This document shows, in pieces, positions 9,342 through 28,586 of a stretch of DNA of 28,639 nucleotides (the stretch's first letter is position 1; every line of letters starts with the position of its first letter). The notes beneath the pieces are model-generated. The model ran no database searches and was not told where the DNA came from. It saw only the letters and a list, made by a program, of their open reading frames with translations. This stretch comes from Kineosporiaceae bacterium. Its GTDB lineage: Bacteria > Actinomycetota > Actinomycetes > Actinomycetales > Kineosporiaceae. The position numbers and the translations under genes are program-made. Where the stretch lies: positions 1-28,639 of the forward strand of contig JBQGCR010000189.1 of NCBI GenBank assembly GCA_052038585.1. Direction: 5' to 3'.

Positions 9342-10589
9342 TCATGATCGCAGAGCGCCGGACGGCTCAGCTCCACCTGCGTCACCCTCCTGTCCGGCGT
9401 GGCTGGTACGGCCGAGAAGCTCCACAGCGCGGAGGGTCACGGTGGAACGGGTCACGGGCAGGCCTTCTGCGGCCAGCTGCCCGCGGGCGCGTCGCTGCAG
9501 CACCACGCGCAGACCACCGACCTCCGCCAAGACCGCTTCGAGGTCGGCGACATCCGTAGCTGCAACGCCACCGGTAGCGGAAAGTCCCGAGCGCTGCGCG
9601 GCCGGTGCGGTGTCCCACCACGGACCGGGACACCGCAGACGTGCAGGACTGCGGGTTGCGGGGTCCGCGGCGAGTGCGTGCAGGGCCGGGATCGCTGCCG
9701 CGGCCGGCAGGCCGTGATCGAGGATGGCGTCCGCGACCACGTCCGTCAGCCGCCCGGAGATCCCACAGGCCGGCAGGCAGGCCGTGACGGCGTCGCAGAT
9801 CGGCGCAACGGGCGGCGACGTCGACCAGGTCGCTGACACCCAGGAGGGCCAGCATCTGCGCCCGCCGCCCGCTCCGGCGGTCGAGCGGCGGCGTGCCGTG
9901 CGGATTCTCAACGCCGGCGTCCCTGGCATCGGGTGCCGTGGAGGAGGGGCGGGGAGGAGGTGTGTTCTCGGTCAAGAACTCTGGGTTGGGCCGCGCCGGT
10001 GCGGCCACCCTGGCCGCACCCGTGCGGCCAGGGGTAGCCGCATCCTTGCGGCCACCCCTCCCCCGCGTCGCCCGGTCCGTAACCCCTGAGCGGGTGGCGC
10101 GGACCAGGTAACTGTTGGTCAGGTTCACTCCGTCCCGGCAACGGCGGGTCACCTCGACCGCCCCGATCCCGACCAGCTCCCTCAACGCCCTGTCAACGGA
10201 GTCGACGGACTTCTTCCGCAGCCGGTCGGCCAGGGTTCGCCGCGACGGCATCCGCCGGCCCGAGGACTGGCCGTACCTCAGCAGCACCGCGTACAGCCCG
10301 ACCGCGGCGTCGGAGATGTCGGCGTCCAGGACCCATTCCGGGACGATCGCGAACCGCTCCTCCAACAGCAGCGCAGCCGCATGCCGGCCGGTGTCCCCAG
10401 CGGCGTCGTGCCGGTCCGCCGGTTCGAGGTCGTCGACGTGGTCACCGGTCTGCGTGCGGGACGGGACGGCATCTGCCGACACGTTCCAGCGCTCGCCGGA
10501 CGGCGGGGGATGCGTTCTTCGAGGTCGTTGACGACGGGGGGCTCGAGGGGTTCGACTGGGCGTGGCAGGGCGAGCGAAGGGGTGGGCAT
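9342..10589 (-). pseudogene. Winged-HTH replication-initiator-like protein, copy 1, with two opposite frameshifts
   Basis: Colinear with the intact paralog at 26916-28265 (FAIVPEWVLDA.ISDAAV.LYAVLLRYG...SVDRAL.ELV; DPATRSPARL.CPGPWW). One base missing in the G5 run at 10505-10509 and one extra in the C3 run at 9762-9764; total span 1248 bp = 416 codons; GGAGG RBS. Confidence 0.8.
9989..10053. repeat. Three 18-bp palindromic iteron-like units inside rep copy 1
   Basis: GGCCGCGCCGGTGCGGCC (9989-10006), GGCCGCACCCGTGCGGCC (10012-10029) and AGCCGCATCCTTGCGGCC (10036-10053), separated by 5-6 nt C- or G-run spacers. Confidence 0.8.
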
Positions 10590-10807: not shown

Positions 10808-10851
10808 CTGAAATCGGAAGGCTTGCGGATCGACCCCGCCCCTGGCCACCA
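10808..10851 (+). mobile_element. att site 1: degenerate 3' half of tRNA-Phe(GAA)
   Basis: CTGAAA-TCGGAAGGCTTGCGGATCGACCCCGCCCCTGGCCACCA; differs from att2 by one missing A and 4 substitutions; no D-arm or 5' acceptor strand upstream. Confidence 0.85.
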
Positions 10852-10853
10852 CA

Positions 10854-13159: not shown

Positions 13160-13177
13160 GCTCTCCATCCCCATTGA

Positions 13178-13234: not shown

Positions 13235-13253
13235 TCCCCTGCCTGCCGGCCGA

Positions 13254-13829: not shown

Positions 13830-13865
13830 CCGCGGATGGTACGCCCCTTGCGGAGACCAGGAACC

Positions 13866-13905
13866 TGTGTCATCGTCACACCGCTACGTTCATCAATTGT
13901 TACAT
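13866..13905. promoter_or_regulatory. Candidate PaaX-type bipartite operator upstream of the hydrolase
   Basis: TGTGTCATC at 13866 is identical to the left half-site at 21112; imperfect partner TGTTACAT at 13898-13905 (25-nt spacer). Confidence 0.4.
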
Positions 13906-13927
13906 CGACTCACACCGGGGTGAGCTC

Positions 13928-14647
13928 ATGAGCAGCACCGATCCCTTCGTTCTCGTCACCGGCGCCTGGCACGGCGGCTGGGGGTGGCGGCCGGTCGCCG
14001 AGCACCTTCGGGCTGCCGGCCACCGGGTCTACACCCCGACGCTTCCCGGTCTCGCCGACGGCGACGACCCCACGGGTCTCACCCTCGCCGATACCGCCCG
14101 GGCCGTCGTGGACCTGGTCGTGGGCGAGGACCTCCACGACGTCCGGCTCGTGGGGCACAGCTGGGGCGGATACGTGATCACTGCCGCGGCTCCCGCTCTG
14201 GCCGACCGGCTGCGCAAGCTCGTCTACTGGAGCGCCTTCGTGCCCGCCGAGGGCAAGTCGCTCTTCGATGAGGTCCCGCCGCACTACCAGGACCTCTTCC
14301 GCGCGGTGGCCGGGGCATCCGGCAACAACACCGTGACCCTGCCGTTCGAGGTCTGGCAGCAGGGCTTCATGAACGATGCGGACGAGGCGGCTCAACGCAT
14401 CGTGCACTCTTTGCTCGTGCCGCAGCCGTTCCAGTACTTCACCGAGCCGGTCACTCCGCTGGACCCGGCCTTGGGAATCGAGACGAGTTACCTGCTGTCC
14501 GAGCTCGACCTCGGCCTGCCGCCGGGGGAGTACGGCTGGGAGCGATTCGCCGATCGGCTGAGCGTGCCCGTCCAGAAGGCGCCCGGGAGCCACGAGGCGC
14601 TGTTCACCGAGCCCGCCGGCCTCGCCGAGGCCCTCCGGCAGGCCTGA
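13928..14647 (+). CDS. Alpha/beta hydrolase of the salicylate/methyl-ester esterase type
   Basis: FVLVTGAWHGGWGW oxyanion region, GHSWGG nucleophile elbow, C-terminal GSHE catalytic His; 239 aa. Confidence 0.88.
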   Translation: MSSTDPFVLVTGAWHGGWGWRPVAEHLRAAGHRVYTPTLPGLADGDDPTGLTLADTARAVVDLVVGEDLHDVRLVGHSWGGYVITAAAPALADRLRKLVYWSAFVPAEGKSLFDEVPPHYQDLFRAVAGASGNNTVTLPFEVWQQGFMNDADEAAQRIVHSLLVPQPFQYFTEPVTPLDPALGIETSYLLSELDLGLPPGEYGWERFADRLSVPVQKAPGSHEALFTEPAGLAEALRQA

Positions 14648-14683
14648 GCCAGCGGTCCAGGGTGTGGCGTCGAGGGTCCAAGG

Positions 14684-14715
14684 GGGCGGGTCGTGACGGC
14701 AGTCACGACCAGCCC
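14684..14715. terminator. Hairpin downstream of the hydrolase
   Basis: GGTCGTGAC-GGCA-GTCACGACC, extended by GGGC/GCCC after one mismatch. Confidence 0.55.
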
Positions 14716-14771
14716 TCGCCGTTGGGTCGGAGGCAAGCGGCGTCGGAGGCGCCGGAAAGGCGCACTGCATT

Positions 14772-15608
14772 ATGGGACCCGTGGCTCAACGACCCCGCAC
14801 ACTGGTCCTCGACCTCTTCGGTGACTACCTGCGCTACCTCGACGGCGAAGTGCGGCTGAGTCATCTCACGACGCTTCTCGAGGCCTTCGGTATCGGTGCG
14901 CCCACGACGCGGGTGACTCTGTCCCGGCTCCGGCGCGAAGGCTGGTTCGAGACCGAGCGCATCGGCCGGGAGACGCTCTACCGGCTCACTCCGGGCATGC
15001 TCGGCGTCCTGGACGAGGGGCGCGAACGGATCTTCGCCGCACCCGTGACCCAGTGGTCCGGCACCTGGACGCTCGTCATCTACCAGGTGCCGGAGTCCGA
15101 GCGGCAGGAGCGCAACACCTTGCGCAAGTCGCTGTCGTGGAACGGTTTCGGGGCTCTGACAACGTCCACCTGGCTCGCCCCGGGAGATCGACGGCAGGAG
15201 ACGCGCACCCTTGTCGACTCCCTCACTGACGAGCTCGTAGACGTCCTGGCATGCGCCTCCGAGGGGCTCGAACACGACCGCGACCTCGCCCGCCGCTGCT
15301 GGGATCTCGAGGCGCTGGCACGGCAGTACGCCGAGTTCGTCAGTGACCACACAAGCCTGCTCCGCGCGGGGGCGGAACTATCCGGGGCCCCGGCCCTCCT
15401 GGCCCGCACCGGGCTCATCAGCGCCTATCGCGTCTTCCCCTTCCGGGACCCCAGACTCCCCCCCGACCTCCGGCCGGACCCGTGGCCGGGGGCGCAGGCG
15501 TACGACCTGTTCCGCAGGGTCCACACGTTGCTCGGACCTGCGGCGCGGGCCTACGTCGGACAGGTCGTCGGCGTCGAGCCGCCCGACCCCGGGCCGGCCG
15601 CCGACTGA
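14772..15608 (+). CDS. paaX: PaaX family transcriptional regulator (paralog 1)
   Basis: LVLDLFGDYLR, RVTLSRLRREGW, WSGTWTLVIYQVPE, C-terminal RVFPFRDPRLPPDLRPDPWPG; alternative GTG start at 14781. Confidence 0.92.
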   Translation: MGPVAQRPRTLVLDLFGDYLRYLDGEVRLSHLTTLLEAFGIGAPTTRVTLSRLRREGWFETERIGRETLYRLTPGMLGVLDEGRERIFAAPVTQWSGTWTLVIYQVPESERQERNTLRKSLSWNGFGALTTSTWLAPGDRRQETRTLVDSLTDELVDVLACASEGLEHDRDLARRCWDLEALARQYAEFVSDHTSLLRAGAELSGAPALLARTGLISAYRVFPFRDPRLPPDLRPDPWPGAQAYDLFRRVHTLLGPAARAYVGQVVGVEPPDPGPAAD

Positions 15609-15746
15609 CGGACCCGCGGCACGGCAACATCGGCCCACGGCAGCTCACCGGGGCCGTCACCCTGACACAGCTCGACCTGGCTGGACCTGGCTCGTCAGCG
15701 CTCTCCACGGTTCGTCGACGTCGGACGTTCGGGAGAGGCGCACGGC

Positions 15747-17435
15747 TCAGGACGGCGACAGGCGCCGGACGACGTCCTGACGCAACGCCTTCTTGTCGAT
15801 CTTGCCGACCTTGGTGGCCGGCAACTCGGGGATGACCTCGAGCCGCTCGGGGACCTTGTAGGTGGCCGCACCGGCCGCGAGCACTGCCGCGCGGACATCC
15901 GCGAGCGCGAGTGACGCACCGTCGGCGAGAACTGCGTACAGGCAGACACGCTCGCCGAGCACGGCATCCGGCATCGCCACGGCCGCACACTGCACCACCT
16001 GGGGCAGGCTGCGGTAGACGAGATTCTCGACGTCCTCGGCGCTGATCTTCTCCCCGCCCCGGTTGATCATGTCCTTGTCGCGGCCCTCGACGACGAGGTT
16101 GCCGTCCGGCCGCCGCCGGACGATGTCGCCGCTGCGGTACCAGCCGTCAGGGGTGAAGGCTCGGGCGTTCTGCTCCGGGGCGCGGTAGTAGCCGCGCGGC
16201 GTGTAGGGACCTCGGGTGAGCAGCGAACCGGCGGTGCCGTCGGAGACGTCCACGCCGAACTCGTCCACGATGCGCACCTCGTCGCCCTCGCTCATCGGAC
16301 GGCCCTGGGTCGTACAGACGACCTCGTCCGGGTCGTCGTCACGGGTGTAGTTGAGCAGCCCCTCGGCCATGCCGAACACCTGCTGCAGCCGGCAGCCCAG
16401 CACCGGCTGCACGGTGCGGGCGACGTCGTCCGCGAGCCGGGCCCCGCCCACCTGCAGCAGCCGCAGGGTGGCCAGCTGCGCGGCCCCGTACTCCTTCGCG
16501 TGCGTGATCCAGCGCTGGGCCACCGCGGGAACGGCCGCCGCGACGGTGACCCCCTCCGCAGCGATGGTGGCGAACACTCGCTCCGGCTCCGGCGAGGGCA
16601 GCAGGACGGTCCGCCCGCCGGCGAGCATCGTGCCGAGCAGGCCGGGGCAGGCGAGCGGGAAGTTGTGCGAGGCCGGCAGCGTCCCCAGGTACACGGCGTC
16701 CGGGCCCAAACCGCAGACCTCCGCGCTGGCCCGGGCGTTGTAGGCGTAGTCGTCGTGCGTCCTGGCGATGAGCTTCGGCAGGCCGGTCGTGCCGCCGGAA
16801 AGCAGGAAGACGGCGACGCTGCGGCTGTCCGGTGCGGCGGCGTCCCAGCGTGCCCGGTGCGCGGCCGCCTCGTCGGCGTCCTCGGGCTCGGCGCACAGTG
16901 CCGTGAGGTCGACGTGCCCGGTGCGCGGCGCGGAGCCGACCACGAGGACGTGCTCGAGGGTCGGGGCGTCCGCCCGAAGCTCGTCGGCGAGCGCCTCGTG
17001 GTCGAAGTCGCGCAGCACGTCCGGCACCGCCACGGCGGCCGCCTCGCTGTGGTCGACGATGTAGGCCATCTCGTGTCGACGGTGCGCGGGCAGGGCCATC
17101 ACCGGGACGATCCCGGCCCGCAGGCAAGCCAGCGTGAGGACGACGAACTGCCAGCAGTTCGGCAGCTGGACGACGACCCGGTCCTCGCGCCGCAGCCCGA
17201 GCTCGTCGGTCAGGCGGGTGGCGAGGGCGTCGGCGCGCGCCGTGAGGGAGCGGTAGGTGAGGCGCACCTCGTCGTCGACGAGGGCCACCGCGTCAGGGCG
17301 TCCGTCGGCGACGGCGAACAGCTCGGTGCCGAGCGAGAGGCCGCGCCACCACCCGCGTGCGGCGTAATCGCGGGCGAGGTCGTCGGGCCAGGGGACGACA
17401 CCGTCGCAGAGCGGGCTCACGGGCGTGCGGCTCAC
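15747..17435 (-). CDS. sdgA: Salicylate/2,3-dihydroxybenzoate-AMP ligase (DhbE family), SdgA-like
   Basis: LLSGGTTGLPKLIARTHDDYAY, PASHNFPLACPG, QQVFGMAEGLLNYTR, RGPYTPRGYYRA, KVGKIDK; context matches the Streptomyces sdgABC order. Confidence 0.9.
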   Translation of the reverse strand: MSRTPVSPLCDGVVPWPDDLARDYAARGWWRGLSLGTELFAVADGRPDAVALVDDEVRLTYRSLTARADALATRLTDELGLRREDRVVVQLPNCWQFVVLTLACLRAGIVPVMALPAHRRHEMAYIVDHSEAAAVAVPDVLRDFDHEALADELRADAPTLEHVLVVGSAPRTGHVDLTALCAEPEDADEAAAHRARWDAAAPDSRSVAVFLLSGGTTGLPKLIARTHDDYAYNARASAEVCGLGPDAVYLGTLPASHNFPLACPGLLGTMLAGGRTVLLPSPEPERVFATIAAEGVTVAAAVPAVAQRWITHAKEYGAAQLATLRLLQVGGARLADDVARTVQPVLGCRLQQVFGMAEGLLNYTRDDDPDEVVCTTQGRPMSEGDEVRIVDEFGVDVSDGTAGSLLTRGPYTPRGYYRAPEQNARAFTPDGWYRSGDIVRRRPDGNLVVEGRDKDMINRGGEKISAEDVENLVYRSLPQVVQCAAVAMPDAVLGERVCLYAVLADGASLALADVRAAVLAAGAATYKVPERLEVIPELPATKVGKIDKKALRQDVVRRLSPS

Positions 17436-19489
17436 GGTGCGGGCTCCTTGTCGACGATGAGGACGGCGTCCAGGGCGAGCAGCCCGTCCGCCGTCACGCG
17501 CAGCGGGTTGATCTCGACGTCCCGGACGTGCGGGCGGGCGTGCAGGAGGTCGCCGAGCGCGACGAGGACCCGGCCGACGGCCGCTCGATCCGCGGCGGGG
17601 CCGCCGCGGAAGCCGTCGAGCAGCACTGTCGCTCGCAGCTGGTCCAGCAGGGCAGCGGCAGCGGTGGCGTCCAGCGGTGCCGGCGCGAGCGCGACGTCGT
17701 CCAGGGCCTCGGCGACGACGCCGCCGAGGCCGACGAGTACGACCGGCCCGAACACGGGGTCGCGGGTGGCCCCGACGACGAGGTCGATGCCCGACGGGGC
17801 CATCGTCTCCACGAGGAACCGCCGGGCGCCGGCGGCCTCGAGCGCGTCCAGGGCTGCGTCGAGCGCCGCGGCGTCGCGCACGCCGAGGTGGACGCCGCCG
17901 ACGTCGGACTTGTGCGTCACCGAGGCGTCCAGCAGCTTGACCGCGACCGGGCCCGGCAGCTCCGCCAGGGCTCGGTGGGCCTCGTCGCGGTCGGCGCAGA
18001 CCCGGCGCGGAGGCGTCGGCACGCCAAGCGCTGCCAGCAAGGTCTTGGCCTCGTCCTCGTCGAGGTCACGGCCGGGGACGTCCGGCGGCGCCGGCGCCGC
18101 GGAGGGCGGTGTCTCCCGCCGGCGGGCGTGCCGGGCGCGGGAGTCCTCGACGAGGGCGGCCACAGCACTGGTCAAGGCGGCGGGGCCGGTGACGGCGGGC
18201 ACGCCGAGCGCGTGCAGGGCCGCACGCTGGCGCGCGACCTCGGCCTGCGGTCCCCCCAACCCGACGACGAACGGCGCCCCGCCGGCGGACGCCGCGCTGG
18301 CCACAGCCGCGGGCAGGTCGAGGGCGTCCGGCTCGCTGAGCGCGTAGACGCTGACGACGTCGACACCCGGGTCGGCGGCCACGGCGACGAGGACGTCGTC
18401 GAACCCCGCTCGGGGCCGGCCCGTGTCGACCGGGTTCGCCTGGTACGTCAACGGCGGCAGCACCGCGGACACGCCCGCCCGGGTCCGCTCGTCGAGCACG
18501 GGCAACTGGACGTCGCGGCCGCGCAGACCGTCGACGTGCAGCAGGCCGGGGCCGGCCTGCGCCGTCACGACCCCGACCCCCGCCGCGGGCGAGGCGGGCA
18601 GCCGGAAGGCCGACAGCGCGGTGACGGCGTCGACGAGCTCGCGCTCGTCGGCCACGAGAACGGCACCGGCGGCGCGCAGGACGGCCCGGGTCGTCCGCCA
18701 CGAGGTGGCCAGCGCGCCGGTGTGGGACCGGGCGAAGTCAGCGACGTCGTTGCGCCCGACGACGAGCGCCACGACCGGCTTGCGCGTGCTGAGGCGACGG
18801 ACGGCCGCCGCCAGCCGCGGCCCGTCGGCAACGGACTCGACGTGGAGGGCGACCGCCGCGGTGGCCTCGTCGTCCTCGAGGTACTCCAGGACGTCGGCCG
18901 CGGACACGTCCACGGCGTTGCCGAGCCCCACGGCGAGCGAGACGCCCACGCCGGCCTCGGCGAGCGCGAAGGCGAGCGCGTGATTGACGCCGCCGCTGGC
19001 CGCGACGACGGCGACCGGCCCCGCAGCGAGGGCCGTCGTCCCGGGGACGAACGAGGCCGTGAGCGCCCGGCCGGGCACCACGAAGCCGGAGGTGTTGGGG
19101 CCGAGCAGCGTCGTGCCGGTGCCCAGCGCCGCGGCGACGAGGGCCGCCTGGTGCGCGATCCCGTCGCCGCCCGCCTCGGCGTACCCGCCGGAGCAGACCA
19201 GCGCGGCCCGGACGCCCGCCCCCGCCACCTGCGTCACGACCGCCGCGGACGCGGCCGCCGGGACGCATAGGACGGCCAGGTCGAGCGGGTCACCGGCGGC
19301 GTCCGCCGCCTCGGCGACGCTCGCGTAGCGGCCCGCTCCCGGGTCGGCGTCCCGGGCATTGACCCCGACGACGGTGCCGGGGAACCCGGCCAGCGACCGG
19401 AGCATGACGGCGCCCAGCTTGCCCGGGTCGCGGGACGCCCCGATGACGACGATCCCGCGGGGCGCGAAGAGCGCGCCGAGCCCGCTCAC
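17432..19489 (-). CDS. sdgB: ADP-forming acyl-CoA synthetase family protein (CoA-binding + ligase + ATP-grasp), SdgB-like
   Basis: VIGASRDPGKLG CoA-binding motif, LLGPNTSG, SHTGALA with the phospho-His, HKSDVGGVHLG and EINPL ATP-grasp; GTGA overlaps at both ends. Confidence 0.88.
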   Translation of the reverse strand: MSGLGALFAPRGIVVIGASRDPGKLGAVMLRSLAGFPGTVVGVNARDADPGAGRYASVAEAADAAGDPLDLAVLCVPAAASAAVVTQVAGAGVRAALVCSGGYAEAGGDGIAHQAALVAAALGTGTTLLGPNTSGFVVPGRALTASFVPGTTALAAGPVAVVAASGGVNHALAFALAEAGVGVSLAVGLGNAVDVSAADVLEYLEDDEATAAVALHVESVADGPRLAAAVRRLSTRKPVVALVVGRNDVADFARSHTGALATSWRTTRAVLRAAGAVLVADERELVDAVTALSAFRLPASPAAGVGVVTAQAGPGLLHVDGLRGRDVQLPVLDERTRAGVSAVLPPLTYQANPVDTGRPRAGFDDVLVAVAADPGVDVVSVYALSEPDALDLPAAVASAASAGGAPFVVGLGGPQAEVARQRAALHALGVPAVTGPAALTSAVAALVEDSRARHARRRETPPSAAPAPPDVPGRDLDEDEAKTLLAALGVPTPPRRVCADRDEAHRALAELPGPVAVKLLDASVTHKSDVGGVHLGVRDAAALDAALDALEAAGARRFLVETMAPSGIDLVVGATRDPVFGPVVLVGLGGVVAEALDDVALAPAPLDATAAAALLDQLRATVLLDGFRGGPAADRAAVGRVLVALGDLLHARPHVRDVEINPLRVTADGLLALDAVLIVDKEPAP

Positions 19490-21096
19490 GGGGTGCCCTC
19501 GCCCACGGCGACGAGGTCGGCCCGGCCGGACAGGACGGCCGTCAGGGCGTCGTCGTCGCCGCCGTCCGGGCCGTCGACGAGCACGCTCACCAGACCGTGC
19601 TCCAGCCGCGCCTCCTCCGTGAGCAGCCGGCGCGTCAGAGCCGTGCCGCCGTGGACGGCGACCAGGCAGGCACCGGACGCCGCGGCGTCCGCGAGCGCAC
19701 GGGACGCCGCCGCGATCCCGGCCTCCGACTCCGGAGCCTCGACGTCGACCCCCCACGGCCCGGATCCGTCCGACTGCCGCATCTGTCTGGAACCGTTGCC
19801 GTGCAACGGGACGACGAGCCCGTCGAGGACGGCGGCCCCTGCCCGGACGACGGCGGTCCGCCGGGCGACCCGGTGCCCGGCGACGACGATGGCGCTGTCG
19901 AGCGGCTCGGCTCCGTGCAGGCCGCGCCAGCGGGCGTGGGCGGTGTCGACGAATGCGGGATCGCGCCGCCTCAGCTTGGCGTCAGTGAGGCTGCGCGTGA
20001 GGAAGTGGTGGGCGAACTGCCACGGCGGCAGGGCATCGTAGGAGCGGCCGAAGTGCTCCCACCAGGCCAGGCTGGGGCGGGCGGCGCCCTGGATCCGGGC
20101 GACCTGCGGCTGCCGCACGGCCTCGTACCTCTCGAGGGCGGCGTCGACGTCGTCGGCGCCGTCACCGGGGTGCTCAGCAAGGGCCGCGACGAGCGCGACG
20201 GCGTCCTCCATGGCCATTTTCGTGCCCGAGCCCACGGAGAAGTGCGCGGTGTGCGCCGCGTCGCCGAGCAGGGCGACGGCGGTGCCGCCGACCCGGTGCC
20301 GCCAGCGCGATGAGCCCCGGGTGCGGAAATTGGCCCAGCGGGAGTTGTTGACGAGCAACGGATGCCCGTCGAGCTGACCGGCGAACAGCTGCTCGAGGTA
20401 CGCGCGCGAGACCTCGTCGCTGGGCCCCGGCGGCTGCGTGACGTCGAAGGCGTGCAGCCCGGCGGCGCGCCACGACGCCTCGTCGGTCTCGACGATGAAG
20501 GTCGACCGTCCGCCGCCGATCGGATAGCCGTGGACGGCGAAGACGCCGTGCGGGCCGCGCTCGTGGACAAACGTGAGCCCCTGGAACGGGTACGTCGTCC
20601 CCAGCCAGATGAACTTCACGGCCGACGTCACAAGGGTCGGCTCGAAAACCTGGCCGAACCGGTCGCGCAGCTGGGAGTTCGCGCCGTCCGCCGCCACGAC
20701 GAGGTCGTAGCCGGCACCCAGCAGGTCCTCCGGTGCGACCGGGGAGGCGAAGCGGACGTCGACGCCGGCGTCGGCGGCACGTTCCTGCATCAGGCGCAGG
20801 AGCGTGCGACGTTCCACTGCGGCCATGCCGTTGCCCCCGCACCGCCACTGCTCGCCGCGGAGGCGCACCTCGATCGAGTCCCAGTGCACGCCGTGCTGCT
20901 CGAGCGCGGTCCGCAGCACGGGGTCGGCCTCGTGGATGCCGTCCAGCGTCGCGTCGGAGAAGACGACACCGAAGCCGAAGGTGTCCTCGGCCCGGTTGCG
21001 CTCGAAGACCGTCACCTGGCGCGCGGGGTCGGCACGCTTGGCCAGCGTGGCGGCGAACAGGCCGCCAGGGCCGCCGCCGAGGACGGCTATCCGCAT
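19486..21096 (-). CDS. sdgC: Salicyloyl-CoA 5-hydroxylase-like flavin monooxygenase (SdgC/AbmA family) with a shortened C-terminal domain
   Basis: MRIAVLGGGPGGL, TFGFGVVFSD, VAADGANS, LLGDAAHTAHFSVGSGTKMAMEDA; 536 aa ending in SGRADLVA. Confidence 0.88.
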   Translation of the reverse strand: MRIAVLGGGPGGLFAATLAKRADPARQVTVFERNRAEDTFGFGVVFSDATLDGIHEADPVLRTALEQHGVHWDSIEVRLRGEQWRCGGNGMAAVERRTLLRLMQERAADAGVDVRFASPVAPEDLLGAGYDLVVAADGANSQLRDRFGQVFEPTLVTSAVKFIWLGTTYPFQGLTFVHERGPHGVFAVHGYPIGGGRSTFIVETDEASWRAAGLHAFDVTQPPGPSDEVSRAYLEQLFAGQLDGHPLLVNNSRWANFRTRGSSRWRHRVGGTAVALLGDAAHTAHFSVGSGTKMAMEDAVALVAALAEHPGDGADDVDAALERYEAVRQPQVARIQGAARPSLAWWEHFGRSYDALPPWQFAHHFLTRSLTDAKLRRRDPAFVDTAHARWRGLHGAEPLDSAIVVAGHRVARRTAVVRAGAAVLDGLVVPLHGNGSRQMRQSDGSGPWGVDVEAPESEAGIAAASRALADAAASGACLVAVHGGTALTRRLLTEEARLEHGLVSVLVDGPDGGDDDALTAVLSGRADLVAVGEGTP

Positions 21097-21110
21097 CGGG
21101 CATCCCTTAT

Positions 21111-21150
21111 ATGTGTCATCTATGAGCCGGACGGCGCTACAGTGACACAT
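21111..21150. promoter_or_regulatory. Candidate PaaX operator between divergent sdgC and paaX
   Basis: Perfect 8-bp inverted repeat ATGTGTCA-N24-TGACACAT; widely spaced half-sites resemble the E. coli PaaX operator architecture. Confidence 0.55.
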
Positions 21151-21243
21151 GTGCGTCGACGGCCGCAAGACCGCGTGGCCTCGGACGCGCGGTGACCACC
21201 CGGCGTCCAGGACAATCACGGGCGGGGCCGCGAGAGGAGGACG

Positions 21244-22047
21244 ATGAAGCCGCGGTCGGTGGTGTTCGACCTGTTCGGGGACCATCTGCGCTACCTCGCC
21301 GGCGCCGTCCGGACCCAGAGCCTCGTGGCACTGCTCTCCGCGTTCGACATCGGGGAGCCGACCGCCCGGATCGTGCTCGCGCGGCTGCGGAAGGAAGGCT
21401 GGCTGGAGACGCGACGGTCGGGCCGGGAGGCGGTCTGGGCCGTGACGCCGCGCGCCCTGGGGATGCTCGACGACGGGCGCGCGCGCATCTTCGAGCGGGC
21501 GCGTGCGCCATGGGACGGCCAGTGGCGGATGGTCATCTACACCGTCGCCGAGCAGGACCGCGCAGAACGCGAGCAGCTCCGGCGGGCCCTGGCCTGGCTC
21601 GGGTTCGGCCCCCTCGCGGCGTCGACGTGGCTCAGCCCGCACGACCGGCTCGACGACGTCGAGAAGGCGCTTGCCGAACACACCGCCGTCCGGGCGGACC
21701 TCTTGACCTGCCGGTCCCGCGGCCGCGCGGCCGACCTCGACATGGTGTCCCGCTGCTGGGACCTCGACACCCTTGCCGGGGACTACCTGGAGTTCGTATC
21801 CAGCGTGGACCGCCTGCCCTCCCCCACCGACCTCGCCCGGCTGCCTGGGCCCGAGTCGCTGCGCGTCGGGGTCCGCCTCGTCGCCGACTACCGCCGGTTC
21901 CCCTTCCGCGACCCCGACCTGCCCGCCGACCTGCTGCCGCGAGGCTGGCCCGGGACGCACGCCCACGAGCGGTTCATCGCGGCCCACGAGGCGCTCGCCG
22001 GCCCGGCTCGCCGGTTCGTCAGCGAGGTCCTCGAGCGGGACGGCTGA
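21244..22047 (+). CDS. paaX: PaaX family transcriptional regulator (paralog 2)
   Basis: MKPRSVVFDLFGDHLR, WDGQWRMVIYTVAE, LGFGPLAASTW, RRFPFRDPDLPADLLP; GAGGAGG RBS. Confidence 0.93.
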   Translation: MKPRSVVFDLFGDHLRYLAGAVRTQSLVALLSAFDIGEPTARIVLARLRKEGWLETRRSGREAVWAVTPRALGMLDDGRARIFERARAPWDGQWRMVIYTVAEQDRAEREQLRRALAWLGFGPLAASTWLSPHDRLDDVEKALAEHTAVRADLLTCRSRGRAADLDMVSRCWDLDTLAGDYLEFVSSVDRLPSPTDLARLPGPESLRVGVRLVADYRRFPFRDPDLPADLLPRGWPGTHAHERFIAAHEALAGPARRFVSEVLERDG

Positions 22048-22069
22048 CGCGGCAAGGCTTTCCGGCCGC

Positions 22070-22843
22070 TCAAAGCGCGTCCGTGACGGCATCCGCCGCG
22101 GCGGCCAGGGCCGCGGCGATCCGGGGCACGCGGTCCTTGCGGTACCGCACCGACGGCATGGAGACCGAGACGGCCGCGACCGTGTCACCGTGACGGTCCA
22201 CCACGGCGCGCCCCACGGCGGCGAGCCCGCGCTCGGACCGCTCGAGGTTGATGGCGATGCCGGTACGCCGGACGGCGCGCAGCTCGCGGTGCAGGCGGGG
22301 CAGGTCCGGCCGGTCGGCCGCCCGGTCGGCGAACCGTTCCGGCGCGTAGAGCGCGTCGACCCGCTCCGGGCTGAGAGCGGCGAGCATGACGAGGCCGCCG
22401 GTGACCGTGTGGGCGGGGAAGACCATGCCCTCGCGGTTGCCGACCCGCAGCGCTTGGTCGCACTCGACCGAGGCGATGAAGCGCGCCGTCGTACCGATCC
22501 GGACCGACAGGTTGCACGTCTCGCCGAGGGTGTCGACGAGCAGGCGCATCGGTTCCAGCGCCGCCGCCCGCAGCCGCGCGACGTCCGACGAGGAGCGGCC
22601 CGAGAGCTCGAGCACCGGGCCGGCCCGGTAGACCCGGTCCTCGCCCTGCACGGCGAAGTCGCGGTACACCAGCGCCTGGAGCAGCCGGTGCGCCGTCGAC
22701 CGCGCGACCCCCAGTCGCTCTGCAGCGGCAGAGACCGTGATCGGCCCCTCGACCTGCAGGACGACCGCGAGTCGCAACGCGTGGTCGACACTCGTCACCG
22801 CGTACGCAGGCGGCGTCTTGAACGGGGCAGACGCGCGGGCCAC
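22070..22843 (-). CDS. IclR family transcriptional regulator (GenR/NagR-like) of the gentisate operon
   Basis: CAGGAGG RBS before GTG 22843; SVDHALRL...LGVARSTAHRLLQAL HTH; TVTGGLVMLA and AVSVSMP effector domain; divergent from gentisate dioxygenase. Confidence 0.92.
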   Translation of the reverse strand: MARASAPFKTPPAYAVTSVDHALRLAVVLQVEGPITVSAAAERLGVARSTAHRLLQALVYRDFAVQGEDRVYRAGPVLELSGRSSSDVARLRAAALEPMRLLVDTLGETCNLSVRIGTTARFIASVECDQALRVGNREGMVFPAHTVTGGLVMLAALSPERVDALYAPERFADRAADRPDLPRLHRELRAVRRTGIAINLERSERGLAAVGRAVVDRHGDTVAAVSVSMPSVRYRKDRVPRIAAALAAAADAVTDAL

Positions 22844-22857
22844 CGATCCTCCTGGTG

Positions 22858-22872
22858 TTCTGCTGTGCAGAA
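22858..22872. promoter_or_regulatory. Candidate IclR operator
   Basis: TTCTGC-TGT-GCAGAA 15-bp palindrome in the 70-bp divergent intergenic region. Confidence 0.6.
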
Positions 22873-22913
22873 TCGTATGTTCCCGCCGGGGAGCCCGCGA
22901 CGAGCATCGGGGC

Positions 22914-24053
22914 ATGACCGACACGCCGCCGTTCGCCGTCGTCGCCAAGGACGGGCCGGACCAGCCCCCGGTGACGCCGGAGCTCCAGGACCTGTACCGG
23001 GGCTTCGAGAAGGCTCTGCTGATCCCGCTGTGGACCGAGATCGGCGGCCTCATGCCGCACGAACCGGTCTCCAAGGCCTCCCCGCACCTGTGGGAGTGGA
23101 AGACCCTGCTCGAGCTGGCAGGGTTGTCCGGCGAGCTCGTGCCGGTCGGCCGTGGCGGCGAGCGACGGGCGATCGCCCTGGCGAACCCGAGCCTGGGCGG
23201 CCGGCCGTACGCGACACCGACCCTGTGGGCCGCGATCCAGTACCTCATGCCGGGCGAGGACGCCCCCGAGCACCGGCACACCCAGAACGCGTTCCGGTTC
23301 GTCGTCGAGGGCGAAGGCGTCTGGACCGTCGTCGAGCGCGAACCGGTCCCGATGCGGCGCGGCGACTTCCTGCCGCAGGCAGGGATGCACTGGCACGCCC
23401 ACCACAACGCCGCCTCGACGCCCATGGCGTGGATCGACGGGCTGGACATCCCGTTCCAGTACGAGGTCGAGGGCCAGTTCTTCGACCTCGGCCGGGACAC
23501 GCTCACCGAGGCCGAGCACGCGACACCCGAGCGCTCCCGGTCGGAGCGGCTCTGGGGCCACCCGGCTCTCGCCCCGGTGTCTCAGCTCGGGTCCACGGCG
23601 GGCAGCCCGCTGCTCGCCTACCGCTGGGTCGACACCGACGCCGCTCTGACCGACCAGCTCGCCCTCGAGCGCGAAGGCTTCGCAGGCGTCGTCGAACCCG
23701 ACCACGCACTCGTCCGGTACACCAACCCGACGAACGGCGGCGACGTCCTGCCGACGATCCGGACCCAGTTCCATCGCATCGCGGCCGGCGCGCAGACCGC
23801 GCCGCGGCGCGAGACTGGGTCGTCGGTGTACCAGGTCTTCGACGGCTCCGGCCGGGTCACCGTCGGCAGCCACTCCTGGTCCATCACCCGAGGCGACCTG
23901 TTCGTCGTCCCGTCGTGGCAGCCGTTCTCCGTCGTCTCGCAGGCCTCCGCGTCGGACTCCGACTCCGGCGCCCTCGACCTCTTCCAGTTCAGCGACGCAC
24001 CGATCTTCGAGCGCCTCAACCTGTTCAAGTCCGCCACGGAGGACGTCTCGTGA
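22914..24053 (+). CDS. nagI: Gentisate 1,2-dioxygenase (bicupin)
   Basis: GRGGERRAIALANP, AAIQYL.PGE.AP.HRHTQNAFRF, HWHAHHN, WIDGLDIP, GDLFVVPSW, LFQFSDAPIFERL. Confidence 0.93.
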   Translation: MTDTPPFAVVAKDGPDQPPVTPELQDLYRGFEKALLIPLWTEIGGLMPHEPVSKASPHLWEWKTLLELAGLSGELVPVGRGGERRAIALANPSLGGRPYATPTLWAAIQYLMPGEDAPEHRHTQNAFRFVVEGEGVWTVVEREPVPMRRGDFLPQAGMHWHAHHNAASTPMAWIDGLDIPFQYEVEGQFFDLGRDTLTEAEHATPERSRSERLWGHPALAPVSQLGSTAGSPLLAYRWVDTDAALTDQLALEREGFAGVVEPDHALVRYTNPTNGGDVLPTIRTQFHRIAAGAQTAPRRETGSSVYQVFDGSGRVTVGSHSWSITRGDLFVVPSWQPFSVVSQASASDSDSGALDLFQFSDAPIFERLNLFKSATEDVS

Positions 24054-24913
24054 AGCTCGCCACCGCCCGCCTGACGTCCTCGACGGGCTCCCGGACGGCC
24101 GCCGTCCGCGTCGAGGGCGACACCCTTGTCGAGCTGCCGTTCACCGACGTCGGCGCGCTCCTCGCGACGCCCGGCTGGCAGCAGGCGGCCTCGGCCGCCG
24201 GGCCGGAGCACCCGACGGACGGAGTGACCTTCGCACCCGTCGTTCCCGCACCTTCCAAGGTCGTCTGCGTCGGCCTCAACTACAAGAACCACATCCAGGA
24301 GATGGGCCGGGACCTGCCCGAGCACCCCACGCTGTTCTCGAAGTTCGCCGACTGCCTCGTCGGCTCGACCGACGACGTCGTCCGGCCCGCCGAGACGACC
24401 GAGTTCGACTGGGAGGTCGAGCTCGCCGTCGTCGTCGGCACACCCGACGCGACGCCGGTGCGGCGGGCGGACGACGAGGCCGCCGCCACGGCGATCGCCG
24501 GGTTCACGGTCCTCAACGACGTGACGTGCCGGGACTGGCAGTTCCGCACCCGGGAGTGGCTGCAGGGCAAGAACTGGGACTCCACGACCCCGGTCGGCCC
24601 CTGGCTCGTCACCCCGGACGAGGTCGGCGGCGTCCGGCCCTCGCTGAAGGTCACCTGCTCCGTCGACGGCGTCGTCATGCAGTCCGACACGACCGGCGAC
24701 CTGCTCTTCGACCCCGTCGACCTCGTCAAGTACGTCTCCACGATGGTCCGGCTCAACCCCGGCGACGTCATCGCCACCGGCACCCCCGGCGGCGTCGGCC
24801 ACGCCCGCAAGCCCCCGCTGTACCTGGCCGGCGGGGAGCTGCTCGTCACCGAGGTCGAGGGCATCGGCCGGCTCGAGAACCGCGTCGTCACCGACCCGGC
24901 CCGGAGCGCCTGA
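24050..24913 (+). CDS. nagK: Fumarylacetoacetate hydrolase family protein (fumarylpyruvate hydrolase)
   Basis: VCVGLNYKNHIQEMG, DWEVELAVVVG, LNDVTCRDWQ, WLQGKNW, GDVIATGTPGGVG; GTGA overlap with the dioxygenase. Confidence 0.92.
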   Translation: MKLATARLTSSTGSRTAAVRVEGDTLVELPFTDVGALLATPGWQQAASAAGPEHPTDGVTFAPVVPAPSKVVCVGLNYKNHIQEMGRDLPEHPTLFSKFADCLVGSTDDVVRPAETTEFDWEVELAVVVGTPDATPVRRADDEAAATAIAGFTVLNDVTCRDWQFRTREWLQGKNWDSTTPVGPWLVTPDEVGGVRPSLKVTCSVDGVVMQSDTTGDLLFDPVDLVKYVSTMVRLNPGDVIATGTPGGVGHARKPPLYLAGGELLVTEVEGIGRLENRVVTDPARSA

Positions 24914-25566
24914 TGGGCCGCGACCTGCCCGCGGCCCTGTCGTACGTCGCGACCGGGACCAAGCTGTGCGCGGACGCCGTCGCCGGCTTCGACGAGGCCG
25001 CCTTCGCCGCGCCGTCGGCGCTACCGGGCTGGACCCGAAAGCATCTCGTCGCGCACCTCGCGGCCAACGCCGAAGCCCTCATGCGGCTGCTCCACTGGGC
25101 CACGACCGGGGAACGGACCCCGATGTACTCCTCCCCTGCGCAACGCAACGCCGACATCGACGCCGGCGCTCGGCGTCCCGGCGCCGACCTCGCCCGCTGG
25201 TTCACGACGTCCGCGGCCCAGCTCGACCAGACGCTCGCCGCGCTGCCGGACGCCGCATGGACCGCCGAGGTCGTCACCGCCCAGGGGCGCACCGTCCCGG
25301 CGTCCGAGATCCCCTGGATGCGGGCCCGCGAGGTGCTCGTCCACGCCGCCGACCTCGCCACCGGCGTCACCTTCGCCGACCTGCCCGACGGCTTCCTCAG
25401 CGCGCTCGGCAACGAGATCCGCGCCAAGCGCACCGCCGCCGGCGAGGACGTCGAGGGCCTCACCGGGTCCCTCGCCGACGTCACCGCCTACCTCGCCGGC
25501 CGCAGCACGTCCGGAGTCACTGCCCCGGACGGCACGCCCGCCCCCGCCCCCTCCCGCTGGCTGTGA
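24913..25566 (+). CDS. nagL: Mycothiol-dependent maleylpyruvate isomerase family protein
   Basis: [51 protein letters not shown]; TGATG overlap with the hydrolase stop. Confidence 0.9.
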
Positions 25567-25576
25567 AGGACTGGTC

Positions 25577-26837
25577 ATGAGCGAGCGCCCGGACGTCATC
25601 GTCGTCGGCGGCGGCATCGGCGGCCTGTCGGCCGCCCTGTCCTGCAAAGGCATCCGGGTCCGCCTCTACGAGAGGTCCGCCGAGTTCGGCGAGGTCGGCG
25701 CCGGCCTGCAGATCGGCCCGAACTGCACCCGCATCCTGACGACTACGGCCTGCTCGACGAGGCCAAATCCCTCGGCGTGCTGCCCGAGGCGATGGTCATG
25801 AAGGGCGCCACCGACGGCTCCGAGCTGACCCGCCTGGACCTGCACAACCTGGAGAAGACCTACGGCTACCCGTACATGGTCATCCACCGCAGCGACCTGC
25901 ACGGCCTGTTCCTGCATGCTTGCCGGCGCCTCGGCGTCGAGCTCATCACCGACCGGCAGTGCGTCGGGTACGCAACCGGCGACGGCGTCGCATCGGTGAC
26001 GTTCGCCGACGGGACGACCGACACCGCCGAGCTCGTCATCGCCGCCGACGGGCTGCACTCCGTCGCCCGGGGTCGCGCTCGTCGGTGACGAGCCGGTCAA
26101 CTCCGCGTACGTCGCCTACCGGGGCGCGGTCCCGTTCGACCAGGTGCGCGAGAACGACGTCCACGAGAAGGACGTCGTGGTCTACATCGGGCCGCGCTGC
26201 CACTTCGTGCAGTACCCGCTGCGCGGCGGCGAGATGTTCAACCAGGTCGCCGTCTTCCAGTCCCCCAAGGCCCTCGCCGGGCAGGACTGGGACACGCCCG
26301 ACGAGCTGGACGCCGCCTTCGACGGCATGTGCGACCCGATCCAGAAGGGCCTGCCGCTCATGTGGCGCGACCGCTGGTGGCGGATGTTCGACCGTGACCC
26401 GATCACCCGGTCGGTCTTCGGCCGGGTCGCCCTGCTCGGCGACGCGGCGCACCCGCCCCTGCAGTACATGGCCCAGGGCGCGATCATGGCGATCGAAGAC
26501 GGCTGGGTCCTCGCCGAGCACGTCGGCGCCCAGAGCGCCGTCCGCACCGAGACCTCGTCCGGTGTCGACTGGGACACCGCCCTCGCCGCCTAGGAGGCCG
26601 TCCGGCCCGAGCACTGCCGGCGCGTCCTGTCCACGGGCCGTGCATGGGGCGAGCTCTGGCACCTCGACGGCGTGGAACGCCTCCAGCGCAACGTCATCCT
26701 GCGGTCCCGCGACACCTACGACTACTCCTTCACCGACGATCTACGGCCCGACGGCGCTCACCCCCGAGGAGGAACCGTCGCTCTACACGACGATCCCCCT
26801 CAGCTCCGTCCAACTGACGGACGAGACACACAACTAA
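25577..26837 (+). pseudogene. nagX: Disrupted 3-hydroxybenzoate 6-hydroxylase (flavin monooxygenase)
   Basis: Fragments match the Rhodococcus/Corynebacterium enzyme ([68 protein letters not shown]). Frameshifts near 25738 (-1), 26069-26072 (+1) and 26738 (-2); TAG at 26591-26593 where homologs have Tyr. Confidence 0.9.
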
Positions 26838-26845: not shown

Positions 26846-26919
26846 CTCGTCGCCATGCAGCAGGGCGACGAGACCGGCCCCTCGTCACCTGGCTCGAGGC
26901 GGTCACCGACGACGTCTAC
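26846..26919 (+). pseudogene. 3'-terminal remnant of a cupin-domain gene
   Basis: With one C added at 26879-26881 it reads LVAMQQGDETGPLVTWLEAVTDDVY, resembling the recalled C-terminus of small cupin proteins (HLAMQEADxxGxxVTWxExVTDxxY); no upstream portion present. Confidence 0.45.
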
Positions 26920-28265
26920 CCGATCTCCGCGTCGCCGGTCGATCTCGACCCAACCACCTTCCCTGCGGCGGTGCCTGAGCGCTGCGCCACCTCGAGAAGG
27001 TCGACGGCGCGGCGGGTGACCGTCCGCCGGGTCACCGGCAGCCCCTCGGCCGCCAGCTGTGCCCGTGCCTGCCGTTGGACGATGACCCGCAGCCCATCGG
27101 CCTCGGCGAGGACCGCCTCCAGACGCGTGACGTCCGTGTCCGGTGCAGCAGTCGGCTCGGCGGGCAATCGGCCCGGCTCCCACCACGGGCCCGGGCAGCT
27201 CAACCTTGCCGGGCTGCGCGTCACCGGATCCGCTGCGACGGCCAGCAGGGCATCGATCGCCCGGTCGGGCGGCAGGCCGCGGTCCAGGACCGCGTCCGCC
27301 AGTACCTCGACCAGCCGTCCCTTCGTCCACAGCCCGGCCGGCAAGCCCTGCTCGTGCCGCCGCCGCACGCAGCGACCCGCCAGCTCGACCAGCCCCTCCG
27401 AGTCGAGGCCGAGCATGCCCAGCACGCGCAGGCCGCGGGCCGTCCCCGCGCTGCCCGGGCCCTCAGGCAGCGGCCTCTGGTGCGTGCCCACCTCGGCCGC
27501 GAGGTCGCGGCGACCGACGGAGGAGGGGCGGGGAGGAGGGCTGTTCTCGGTGAAGAACTCTGGGTCGGGCCGCACCCATGCGGCCACCCCAGCCGCAGCC
27601 CTGCGGCTACCCCTGGCCGCACCCGTGCGACCACCCCAGCCGCTGCGGGAGTGACTCCCCCGGGCACGGCACGCGCCGGACAGCAATGGGTCCTCCGGGG
27701 TGGCCGCAGCCGTGCGGCCACCGTCCTCAGCAGCCCTGTCCGCCGGCATCGGCGCAGGTCCCTTGCGGCGGGTGGAGCGCACGAGGTACCGGTTGGTCAG
27801 GTTCAGGCCGGCCCGTGACCGGCGGGTCACCTCGACCGCACCGAGCGCGACCAGCTCCTTCAGCGCGCGGTCGACGGAGTCGACCGACTTCCGCAGCCGC
27901 CCGGCCAGGGTCCGCCGGGACGGCATCCGCTGCCCGGAGGACTGCCCGTACCGCAGCAGCACCGCATACAGGCGCACCGCGGCGTCGGAGATGGGGGCGT
28001 CCAAGACCCACTCCGGGACGATCGCGAACCGCTCCTCCAGGACCAGCGCACCGGCATGCCTGCGAGTGTCCTGGTCGGTGTCGTGCCGGGCTTTGGACTC
28101 GAGGTCGTCGGTGTTGTCACCGGTCTGTGCGCCGGACCGGGCGGCATGTGCTGGCACGTCACGGCCCTCGCCGGACGACAACGGCAGGCGCTCGCGAAGG
28201 TCGTTGACGGCCGCACGCTCGAGGGGTTCGACTGGACGTGGCAGGGCGGTAGAAGGGGTGAGCAT
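26916..28265 (-). CDS. Winged-HTH replication-initiator-like protein, copy 2 (intact)
   Basis: GGAGG RBS before ATG 28265; 449 aa. N-terminal FAIVPEWVLD...LYAVLLRYG...PSRRTLAGRLRKSVDSVDRALKELVALGAV...NLTNRYLV is the wHTH pattern of phage/element Rep N-termini; repeat-coded low-complexity linker; conserved C-terminal DPVTRSPARLSCPGPWW. Confidence 0.8.
   Translation of the reverse strand: MLTPSTALPRPVEPLERAAVNDLRERLPLSSGEGRDVPAHAARSGAQTGDNTDDLESKARHDTDQDTRRHAGALVLEERFAIVPEWVLDAPISDAAVRLYAVLLRYGQSSGQRMPSRRTLAGRLRKSVDSVDRALKELVALGAVEVTRRSRAGLNLTNRYLVRSTRRKGPAPMPADRAAEDGGRTAAATPEDPLLSGACRARGSHSRSGWGGRTGAARGSRRAAAGVAAWVRPDPEFFTENSPPPRPSSVGRRDLAAEVGTHQRPLPEGPGSAGTARGLRVLGMLGLDSEGLVELAGRCVRRRHEQGLPAGLWTKGRLVEVLADAVLDRGLPPDRAIDALLAVAADPVTRSPARLSCPGPWWEPGRLPAEPTAAPDTDVTRLEAVLAEADGLRVIVQRQARAQLAAEGLPVTRRTVTRRAVDLLEVAQRSGTAAGKVVGSRSTGDAEIG
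27568..27720. repeat. Palindromic iteron-like array inside rep copy 2
   Basis: Units at 27568-27585 (GGCCGCACCCATGCGGCC), 27591-27608, 27615-27632, a partial unit from 27638, and TGGCCGCAGCCGTGCGGCCA at 27701-27720; 23-24 bp period with ACCCC spacers. Confidence 0.82.
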
Positions 28266-28333
28266 CCGGGCCTCCAGCAAGGGTCCGGCGGCACACCACC
28301 CCCAACCCGCTCCGCCCGCAGGGAACGGCAGCT

Positions 28334-28355
28334 ATTGTCCGCGGATTGTCCGCGG
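28334..28355 (+). repeat. Perfect tandem ATTGTCCGCGG x2, candidate integrase arm-type sites (left arm of att2)
   Basis: Ends 128 bp before the att2 core, the same offset as at att1. Confidence 0.65.
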
Positions 28356-28482
28356 CCGGGTCAGGAGGTGGTGTGCCGCGCAGGGATCAACCGACACACG
28401 GCGGAATCCCGAAACCTCACTGACCTGCACCACCACCGACAGGGCGGACGCTGTGGCACCAGGCGGACCAGGACCGAGGCCT

Positions 28483-28526
28483 CTGAAAATCGGAAGGTCG
28501 GCGGTTCGACCCCGCCCCTGGCCACC
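28483..28526 (+). mobile_element. att site 2 (probable attR): exact 3' half of tRNA-Phe(GAA)
   Basis: CTGAAAA anticodon loop, TCGGA 3' stem strand, AGGTC variable loop, GGCGG-TTCGACC-CCGCC T-arm, CCTGGCC-A-CC acceptor strand. The 31 nt upstream cannot supply the GGCCAGG 5' strand or a D-arm, so this is not a tRNA gene. Confidence 0.92.
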
Positions 28527-28528
28527 GC

Positions 28529-28586
28529 AAGGGGCTCTGACCAGCGAGCGAGAACGCAAGCTTTCGCCGCTGGACACAGGCCCCTT
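28529..28586 (+). terminator. Long imperfect hairpin after att2, probably the native tRNA-Phe terminator region
   Basis: AAGGGGC (28529-28535) pairs with GCCCCTT (28580-28586); CCAGCG (28541-28546) pairs with CGCTGG (28568-28573). Confidence 0.5.

Follow-up and report, generated by a model that had tools for sequence, protein, structure and literature searches.

A candidate replication initiator gene with internal dyad boxes at the attachment-site end of actinobacterial integrative islands

In some replicons, the sites bound by a replication initiator lie within the initiator's own gene. The origin of phage lambda has four iterons in the middle of gene O (PMC7466680). In plasmid pSK41, the four Rep boxes bound by the N-terminal domain of Rep occupy the centre of rep, the linker encoded by the origin is dispensable, and the C-terminal domain binds DnaG; the Rep of pPR9 has a PF13730 (HTH_36) N-terminal domain (PMC5703833). 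RepAM of pMEA300, whose family is defined by DUF3631 (PF12307; PMC3218068), also binds repeats within its own gene (PMC2440964). Here we describe a gene with a comparable layout in a 28,639-nucleotide stretch (the window), which is the entire 28.6-kb contig C189 of a Kineosporiaceae metagenome-assembled genome (4.73 Mb in 984 contigs, 88% complete, ~72% GC). The window holds two related genes, an intact one, copy B (26916..28265, minus strand), and a broken one, copy A, both next to attachment (att) sites derived from a tRNA gene. With slightly better than even confidence, we read the gene as the replication initiator of mobilisable actinobacterial islands that integrate at tRNA genes, organised in the style of lambda O and RepA_N with an intragenic origin.

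An earlier note on this DNA had called the protein Rep-like, two-domained and anchored at an att site, and the analysis bears this out. We observed a two-domain architecture, homology of the N-terminal domain to phage initiators, selection at the DNA level on an array of four lambda-O-like boxes, and a fixed place at the island end opposite the integrase. The proposed mechanism is a variation on a known type, an initiator whose origin is intragenic; novelty lies in the setting and in the C-terminal domain.

Domains and internal boxes of the initiator-like gene

The open reading frame of copy B spans 26916-28280 on the minus strand, with its stop codon at 26916-26918. The likely start is the ATG at 28265, giving a protein of 450 residues, with the TTG at 28280 as an alternative; residues of the protein (P0001) are numbered from this TTG. 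The N-terminal extension MLTPSTALPRPVEP recurs in the nearest homologs, which have the stretch MLTxxxxLPRPV at this end. Copy B retains 30 of 30 family-invariant residues. A scan for promoters and terminators around the gene gave none.

An AlphaFold2 model built with 118 homologs comprises a winged helix-turn-helix (wHTH) domain at residues 85-170, with a predicted local distance difference test score (pLDDT) above 90, a disordered linker at residues 171-270, and an all-helical C-terminal domain of eight helices at residues 275-435, with a pLDDT of ~95 (90 when modelled alone). We place the N-terminal domain at residues 79-170 (27771..28046, minus strand). The C-terminal domain, with its invariant PGPWW loop, is encoded at 26976..27458 of the same strand (pLDDT ~90-95 overall). 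With its 450 residues and two domains, copy B falls outside the recombination directionality factors (RDFs), which are small (under ~130 residues), single-domained DNA-bending proteins, typically of HTH_17 or Xis type.

The N-terminal domain of copy B belongs to HTH_36, scoring 29.3 bits against the Pfam cut-off of 25 over residues 97-147, which is the sole Pfam match of the protein. Among NCBIfam models, only those of GntR type gave matches, all below threshold. GntR itself scored 20.9 bits against a cut-off of 27, and no FCD, UTRA or aminotransferase-like effector domain was present; membership of the GntR family was rejected. The best PHROG match is to phrog_270, annotated 'replication initiation protein' (5e-11), and matches to DnaD-like loader and O-like families were also found. 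Searched by Foldseek, the whole model retrieved generic wHTH proteins only, including pSK41-type Rep and the N-terminal domain of DnaD, and in tblastn searches of plasmids and phages nothing beyond the wHTH part matched.

The closest relatives of this domain are found in phages of Arthrobacter and Microbacterium. Aligned with the 'RepA-like replication initiator' of Arthrobacter phage Bolt007 (gp44), it shows 44% identity over 95 residues (hhalign 98%, E 1.7e-13), and identities to phage initiators of this kind, Kovu gp88 among them, range over 44-50%. In the phages, these initiator genes sit between the genes for a single-stranded DNA-binding protein and a helicase loader. They too carry internal repeats, directly after the part that encodes the N-terminal domain (L039:2755-2894 and L038:2788-2835): in the Kovu gene at least four repeats of ~24 bp (period 23-25 bp) followed by two AT-rich 15-mers, in that of Bolt007 two repeats of 24 bp. 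The repeats of the Arthrobacter phage genes are probably phage origins. Unlike copy B, the phage genes have a helicase loader gene behind them; their repeat sequences differ from those found here, and their C-terminal halves are unrelated.

The C-terminal domain matched nothing in profile searches of Pfam, NCBIfam, PHROG and PDB sequences, and its model, taken alone, gave no significant Foldseek match in PDB, VIA-wide, AFDB Swiss-Prot and ESM Atlas. The best VIA hit, a three-helix piece with a Z of 6.1, lies below the noise level for helical proteins. By hhalign, the domain did not match the two phage RepA-like proteins. Its language-model neighbours, which we take as leads only, comprise a 'putative replication protein repA' cluster (0.92) and, more weakly, RepB_C, Bac_RepA_C and DnaB_2 (0.82-0.85). 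The motifs GLPAGLW, AADPxTRSPARLxCPGPWW and LRVxxQRxARxQLAAEGLPVTR recur in both copies and in at least 118 homologs. The structure prediction and the fold and profile searches that the earlier note had proposed have placed the first domain, a wHTH related to phage initiators, and have left its statement that the second matches no nameable family standing.

The DNA that encodes the disordered linker contains four dyad boxes of the form GGCCGCA-N4-TGCGGCC within 27568..27719. In the direction of transcription, these lie at 27702-27719, 27615-27632, 27591-27608 (imperfect) and 27568-27585. Across the family, the consensus is TRGCCGCA-N4-TGCGGCYA with a period of ~24 bp; boxes 2 to 4 follow directly on one another at 23-24 bp, and box 1 stands at a variable distance. 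In each dyad, a 4-nt spacer separates arms of 8-10 bp; the unit is written as GGT GGC CGC Ann nnT GCG GCC ACC, which encodes linker peptides of the form GGRTxAA(T/R)(P/G). A pattern search of the window returned eight box matches where 2.1 were expected, six of which fall in copies A and B, and within 20-kb loci around the homologs the exact core is confined to the initiator-like gene. In two public straw-metagenome runs, X1 and X3, the change A27630G turns box 2 perfect.

Codon usage within the boxes points to selection on the DNA. We counted 32 box units in 11 genes that share only ~45% amino acid identity. The units are partly dependent on one another, but elsewhere in these genes synonymous sites are saturated. 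The first T-ending codon of the unit has its T in 30 of the 32 units and the second in 26 of 32, against 7.6% T at third positions. The arginine codon is CGC (30/32; background 42%) and the alanine codon GCG (30/32; background 34%). The fourth box presents the same DNA in another reading frame, where it encodes G-VAAx(V/L)RP (VAAxxRP) instead of GGRxxAA, and selection must therefore act on the DNA and not on the peptide. Half-site variation, with R at one position and Y at its mirror position, is uncompensated, as would be expected more of a duplex site bound by a dimeric protein than of a hairpin. The residues encoded by the boxes are disordered in the AlphaFold2 model.

Directly past box 4 lies a further conserved element. 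In copy B, a direct repeat, ACCCAGAG-N6-ACC(C/G)AGA(G/A), followed by a CCTCCTCC tract, occupies 27541..27567 (minus strand) and encodes the motif PDPEFFTEN. Family-wide, the element reads ACCCAGAG-N6-ACCCAGAG, is conserved as DNA in two frames and encodes D-P-E and T-Q-x. Mean GC content over the family has a local minimum of 0.61 at these repeats and the CCTCCTCC tract, against 0.70-0.80 elsewhere. The earlier note had counted the post-linker motif (RPDPEFFTEN in copy B, PNPEFLTEN in copy A) among conserved protein features; the linker and post-linker peptides are better explained as by-products of DNA elements. This is a caution for motif hunting, as the strongest peptide motifs of the linker, GGRTxAA, VAAxxRP and PDPExxTQ, are DNA sites imprinted via two frames.

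The layout is that of lambda O: an N-terminal DNA-binding domain, a linker that would be encoded by the origin, and a C-terminal domain that would bind a partner, with four tandem dyad-symmetric sites of ~24-bp period in mid-gene, under selection as DNA, and a less GC-rich stretch behind them; the origin role of the boxes is our inference. Matches of copy B to PHROG O-like families are weak (4e-4 to 0.1) and confined to the wHTH, and Pfam Phage_rep_O gave no match at E up to 1. Unlike lambda O, the protein has an unrelated C-terminal domain and no adjacent P-like or DnaC-like loader gene, the putative unwinding region is only mildly GC-poor, and the host element is an integrative mobilisable island and not a phage.

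With RepA_N initiators and pSK41 Rep, the protein shares a wHTH N-terminal domain, a linker encoded by four boxes and a lineage-specific C-terminal domain, and the hybrid Rep of pPR9 shows that an HTH_36 domain can serve in such an initiator. Copy B has no match to the Pfam models RepA_N (PF06970) and Bac_RepA_C, which appear only as weak language-model neighbours (0.83). The boxes here are palindromes, whereas those of RepA_N are A+T-rich direct repeats, and RepA_N replicons are plasmids of Firmicutes, whereas the present replicon resides in high-GC Actinomycetota and is normally integrated in the chromosome. A RepAM identity was rejected, as copy B has no PF12307 match at E up to 1; the repeats of RepAM also differ, being 8-bp units in a 3'-terminal hairpin with a nick site like that of rolling-circle replication.

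The island end opposite the integrase

More than 300 homologs, with 45-60% identity and mostly 330-370 residues long, are annotated merely as 'helix-turn-helix domain-containing' or hypothetical. They were found in Kineosporia, Vallicoccus, Motilibacter and Acidothermaceae and in many metagenomes. In a search of 1.84 billion representatives, a profile of the C-terminal domain found at least 553 clusters at 50% identity, in which the domain is always paired with an HTH_36 N-terminal domain or present as a fragment. Distribution within the order is patchy, with matches in 9 of 120 genomes and several copies broken, and a phylum-wide sample of 400 genomes gave no match under a stricter filter, which makes this a floor only.

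The position of the gene is fixed. Each of the 11 homolog loci examined has a tRNA 3' half antisense to the gene and 190-440 nt upstream of it; six types of tRNA are involved (Phe, Lys, Thr, Asn, Ser and Arg). Usual neighbours downstream are DUF2637 (PF10935), a NikA-like gene, a relaxase gene of the MobA/VirD2 type (PF03432) and a separate hairpin resembling an origin of transfer (oriT); in three genomes, the only matches to PF10935 and PF03432 lie 0.6-3 kb downstream of the initiator-like gene.

One genome, G406, contains a complete island of 50.1 kb (G406:C4:420475-470645; loci L035, L037, L036 and L026), delimited by 46-nt tRNA-Arg repeats as attL and attR. Its order is an intact tRNA-Arg(ACG), a convergent integrase gene, metabolic cargo, a relaxase gene (PF03432, 2.6e-13), a gene for 127 residues, DUF2637, the initiator-like gene and the 46-nt attR repeat, such that the initiator-like gene and the integrase stand at opposite ends. 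This island has most of what would define an integrative mobilisable element, which lacks mating-pore genes: an integrase, a pair of tRNA-Arg att sites, a relaxase and an oriT-like site. The cargo includes genes for a beta-lactamase-like protein, WS/DGAT, PhaC, an acyl-CoA ligase, a dioxygenase, an FAD monooxygenase, a CoA-transferase and an acyl-CoA dehydrogenase. The island and the window are of one design, with cargo, initiator gene and att in that order. Locus L034 runs from the integrase through a tRNA-Ser 3' half to the initiator-like gene, DUF2637 and then a NikA-like gene, an attP-like or tandem junction, with a separate HTH_17 Xis-like gene beside the integrase.

In the window, the core next to copy B, on the attB side, is a tRNA-Phe(GAA) 3' half running from the anticodon loop to the 3' end (28483..28529, plus strand), identical to the corresponding part of an intact tRNA-Phe on contig C974 of the same genome; ARAGORN found no whole tRNA at this place. 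Two tandem arm-type repeats TTGTCCGCGG (28335..28355, plus strand) separate the core from the start of copy B, and the same pair lies between core and gene start of copy A. Contig C974 (L006) carries the intact tRNA-Phe(GAA), a converging C-terminal fragment of a tyrosine integrase gene and two TTGTCCGCG arm repeats (features at 4-234 on the plus strand, 292-311, and 394-469 on the minus strand). This pair of repeats, the one found at both att copies of the window (TTGTCCGCGG twice), lies beside the integrase fragment, oriented identically relative to the tRNA. Its presence beside the gene and beside the integrase agrees with a single element type whose two arms both bear arm-type integrase sites. 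The genome does hold an integrase for the tRNA-Phe att, with the initiator-like gene on the opposite arm. The earlier note had taken the slot next to att as the usual place of an integrase or excisionase; on C974, in G406 and in L034, however, the integrase sits on the other att arm. Contig C974 breaks off within the integrase gene, its join to C189 being unassembled.

A short GTCCG-containing motif (28440-28482 in the window) recurs at the same offset in all homolog loci, 15-25 nt past the att core on the side of the initiator gene, in elements that differ in the tRNA they use. It could act as an integrase site near the core or as a promoter element.

Proposed replication function and competing explanations

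If the gene is an initiator, the integrase would first cut the island out as a circle. Dimers of the wHTH domain would then bind the four dyad boxes within the coding sequence of the initiator's own disordered linker, the duplex would open at the adjoining ACCCAGAG repeats, where GC content dips, and the family-specific all-helical C-terminal domain would recruit parts of the host replisome, such as helicase or primase. We infer the binding of the boxes, the origin activity and the partner of the C-terminal domain; recruitment of replisome proteins is proposed by analogy with lambda O and pSK41 Rep.

Several points weigh against such a role. The C-terminal domain has no detectable relation to the C-terminal domains of known initiators or to DnaD. 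The region behind the boxes is only mildly GC-poor, with no clear unwinding element. The boxes are nearly identical across the family, whereas plasmid iterons usually diverge between incompatibility groups. The 'RepA-like' names of the phage proteins are annotations by similarity. Plain regulators, too, can have a wHTH of this sort, and the GntR match of copy B is just below threshold.

The alternative that survives best, though we consider it unlikely, is that the protein is a transcriptional regulator of the island, of Kor or repressor/activator type, acting on its own gene and on the downstream DUF2637, NikA-like and relaxase genes; the C-terminal domain would mediate oligomerisation or sense a signal, and the boxes would act as operators or as a roadblock. 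A wHTH with sub-threshold similarity to GntR, MarR and LexA-like proteins would suit a regulator, as would a gene that heads a co-directional set and an upstream region that is strongly conserved (91-95% identity between the two copies from the att core to the start codon, against ~80% in the coding part). Integrative and conjugative elements of actinomycetes (AICEs) always carry a regulator of the GntR or XRE family (PMC2440964); AICEs differ from the present islands in that they transfer by an FtsK-like TraB, whereas the islands carry a relaxase. Against regulation, the boxes lie in mid-gene and not at a promoter, four tandem dyads with a second repeat behind them resemble an origin, and the closest relatives of the N-terminal domain are initiators in phage replication modules, whose genes also have internal repeats.

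A second alternative would make the protein a relaxosome accessory factor and the boxes part of oriT, with the C-terminal domain handing the DNA to the relaxase or to a helper coupling protein in the manner of TraM. We regard it as improbable. The tight linkage to the relaxase, NikA-like and DUF2637 genes would fit, inverted repeats are typical of oriT, and the box region, taken as single-stranded DNA, gives a better fold than shuffled sequence (z -3.75). Each element, however, has a distinct site that is a better oriT candidate than the boxes. This site occurs once per element, usually 66-128 nt past the stop codon of the gene (L001:11174-11203; L027:10565-10594; L028:10678-10707; L031:10488-10517; L026:7363-7373, minus strand). 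It has an invariant GG(G)AGCAAGATAT followed by a hairpin of 8-9 bp, an invariant GGAGCAAGATAT adjoins the hairpin, and the arms co-vary in a compensatory way (GCATCTGG/CCAGATGC, GCGTCTGCT/AGCAGACGC and GCGAATCGC/GCGATTCGC). Read on the opposite strand, the hairpin is followed by ATATCTTGC, which we take to resemble the MOBP nick consensus YATCCTG|Y. With a separate oriT-like site present, the boxes are not needed to explain transfer. An accessory protein is, moreover, already encoded by the NikA-like gene, the uncompensated variation of the half-sites argues for binding of duplex DNA instead of a hairpin, and loci L033 and L034, which have no relaxase, keep the boxes.

The suggestion of the earlier note that the protein could be a recombination directionality factor, which would make it an excisionase bending the adjacent att arm, has very little left to recommend it: the gene adjoins att at all 11 loci, some Xis proteins have a wHTH fold and the promoter region of the gene overlaps the arm-type repeats, but the protein has 340-450 residues with a large second domain where RDFs are small, L034 has its own Xis-like gene next to int, the conserved boxes lie outside the att arms, and the TTGTCCGCGG arm repeats differ from the boxes and stand on both arms, as expected of integrase sites.

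Returning to the initiator reading, we raise only tentatively the wider proposal that these islands form an undescribed class in Actinomycetota, replicative and relaxase-bearing with metabolic cargo, in which a compact module of initiator and internal origin lies opposite the integrase and the C-terminal domain is a new replisome-docking domain. As part of this proposal, the array of the present genome, from the intact tRNA-Phe and integrase on C974 to the perfect att copy at 28483-28529, could still be excised and replicated as a single circle, at least 29 kb in size, with its catabolic genes, despite the loss of transfer genes. Little work exists on how mobilisable islands replicate once excised, and the family offers a testable module; a 2017 review listed only one canonical integrative mobilisable element for Actinobacteria (PMC5704250). 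In practical terms, the initiator-like gene together with the tRNA half and the oriT-like motif forms a signature by which catabolic islands may be delimited in high-GC genomes, and a working origin could serve as a cloning replicon for poorly tractable actinobacteria.

The broken paralog and the genes of the window

Copy A (9393..10589, minus strand) lies 17.7 kb to the left of copy B and is ~82% identical to it in DNA. The proteins share 56% identity over 445 residues only when two frame breaks, near 10450 and 9760, are read through, and the HTH_36 score of copy A (24.0) is just under the cut-off of 25. Its boxes are at 9989-10053. Contigs of public straw-metagenome runs cover this region with 0-2 differences, and those of three runs share the break near 9760, which makes copy A a pseudogene by at least one frameshift; the first break may be a variant or an error, as an extra G behind 10504 in one public run would mend it. 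The earlier note had seen the wHTH, the post-linker motif and the C-terminal domain conserved in both paralogs; the motifs are indeed in both, but only copy B is intact, a break in copy A that it had not noticed.

The att copy beside copy A is a degenerate tRNA-Phe 3' half (10808..10853, plus strand) with arm repeats at 10660-10680; an integrase remnant was searched for to its right and not found. Both copies are transcribed away from their tRNA-Phe core, as the earlier note had stated. Its spacing of 218 bp holds for copy B (28265 to 28483, from the ATG to the first core base), and copy A is one longer at 219 nt (10589 to 10808). Unitigs with loose ends before 28483 are short pieces of the tRNA 5' half and are uninformative about an empty site.

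The window represents two accreted island ends at tRNA-Phe, one of them decayed and neither with a transfer module. No DUF2637, NikA-like gene, relaxase or oriT-like site was found in the window or in its 88% complete genome, such that, with the integrase fragment on C974 as the one component of this kind present, neither window nor genome qualifies as an integrative mobilisable element. In the present genome, the gene is a stranded remnant of island machinery, intact as copy B, which has only its att copy for company, and a pseudogene as copy A; the island end at copy B is possibly still functional.

The genes beside copy B form a catabolic cluster of salicylate/gentisate type. Between the copies (11154-26837), this aromatic-acid cluster contains no mobility gene. 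Its members include a Rieske/VanA-like oxygenase with its reductase, a TetR regulator, a hydrolase, two PaaX genes and AMP- and ADP-forming CoA ligases, along with an FAD monooxygenase, a bicupin dioxygenase and a mycothiol-dependent isomerase.

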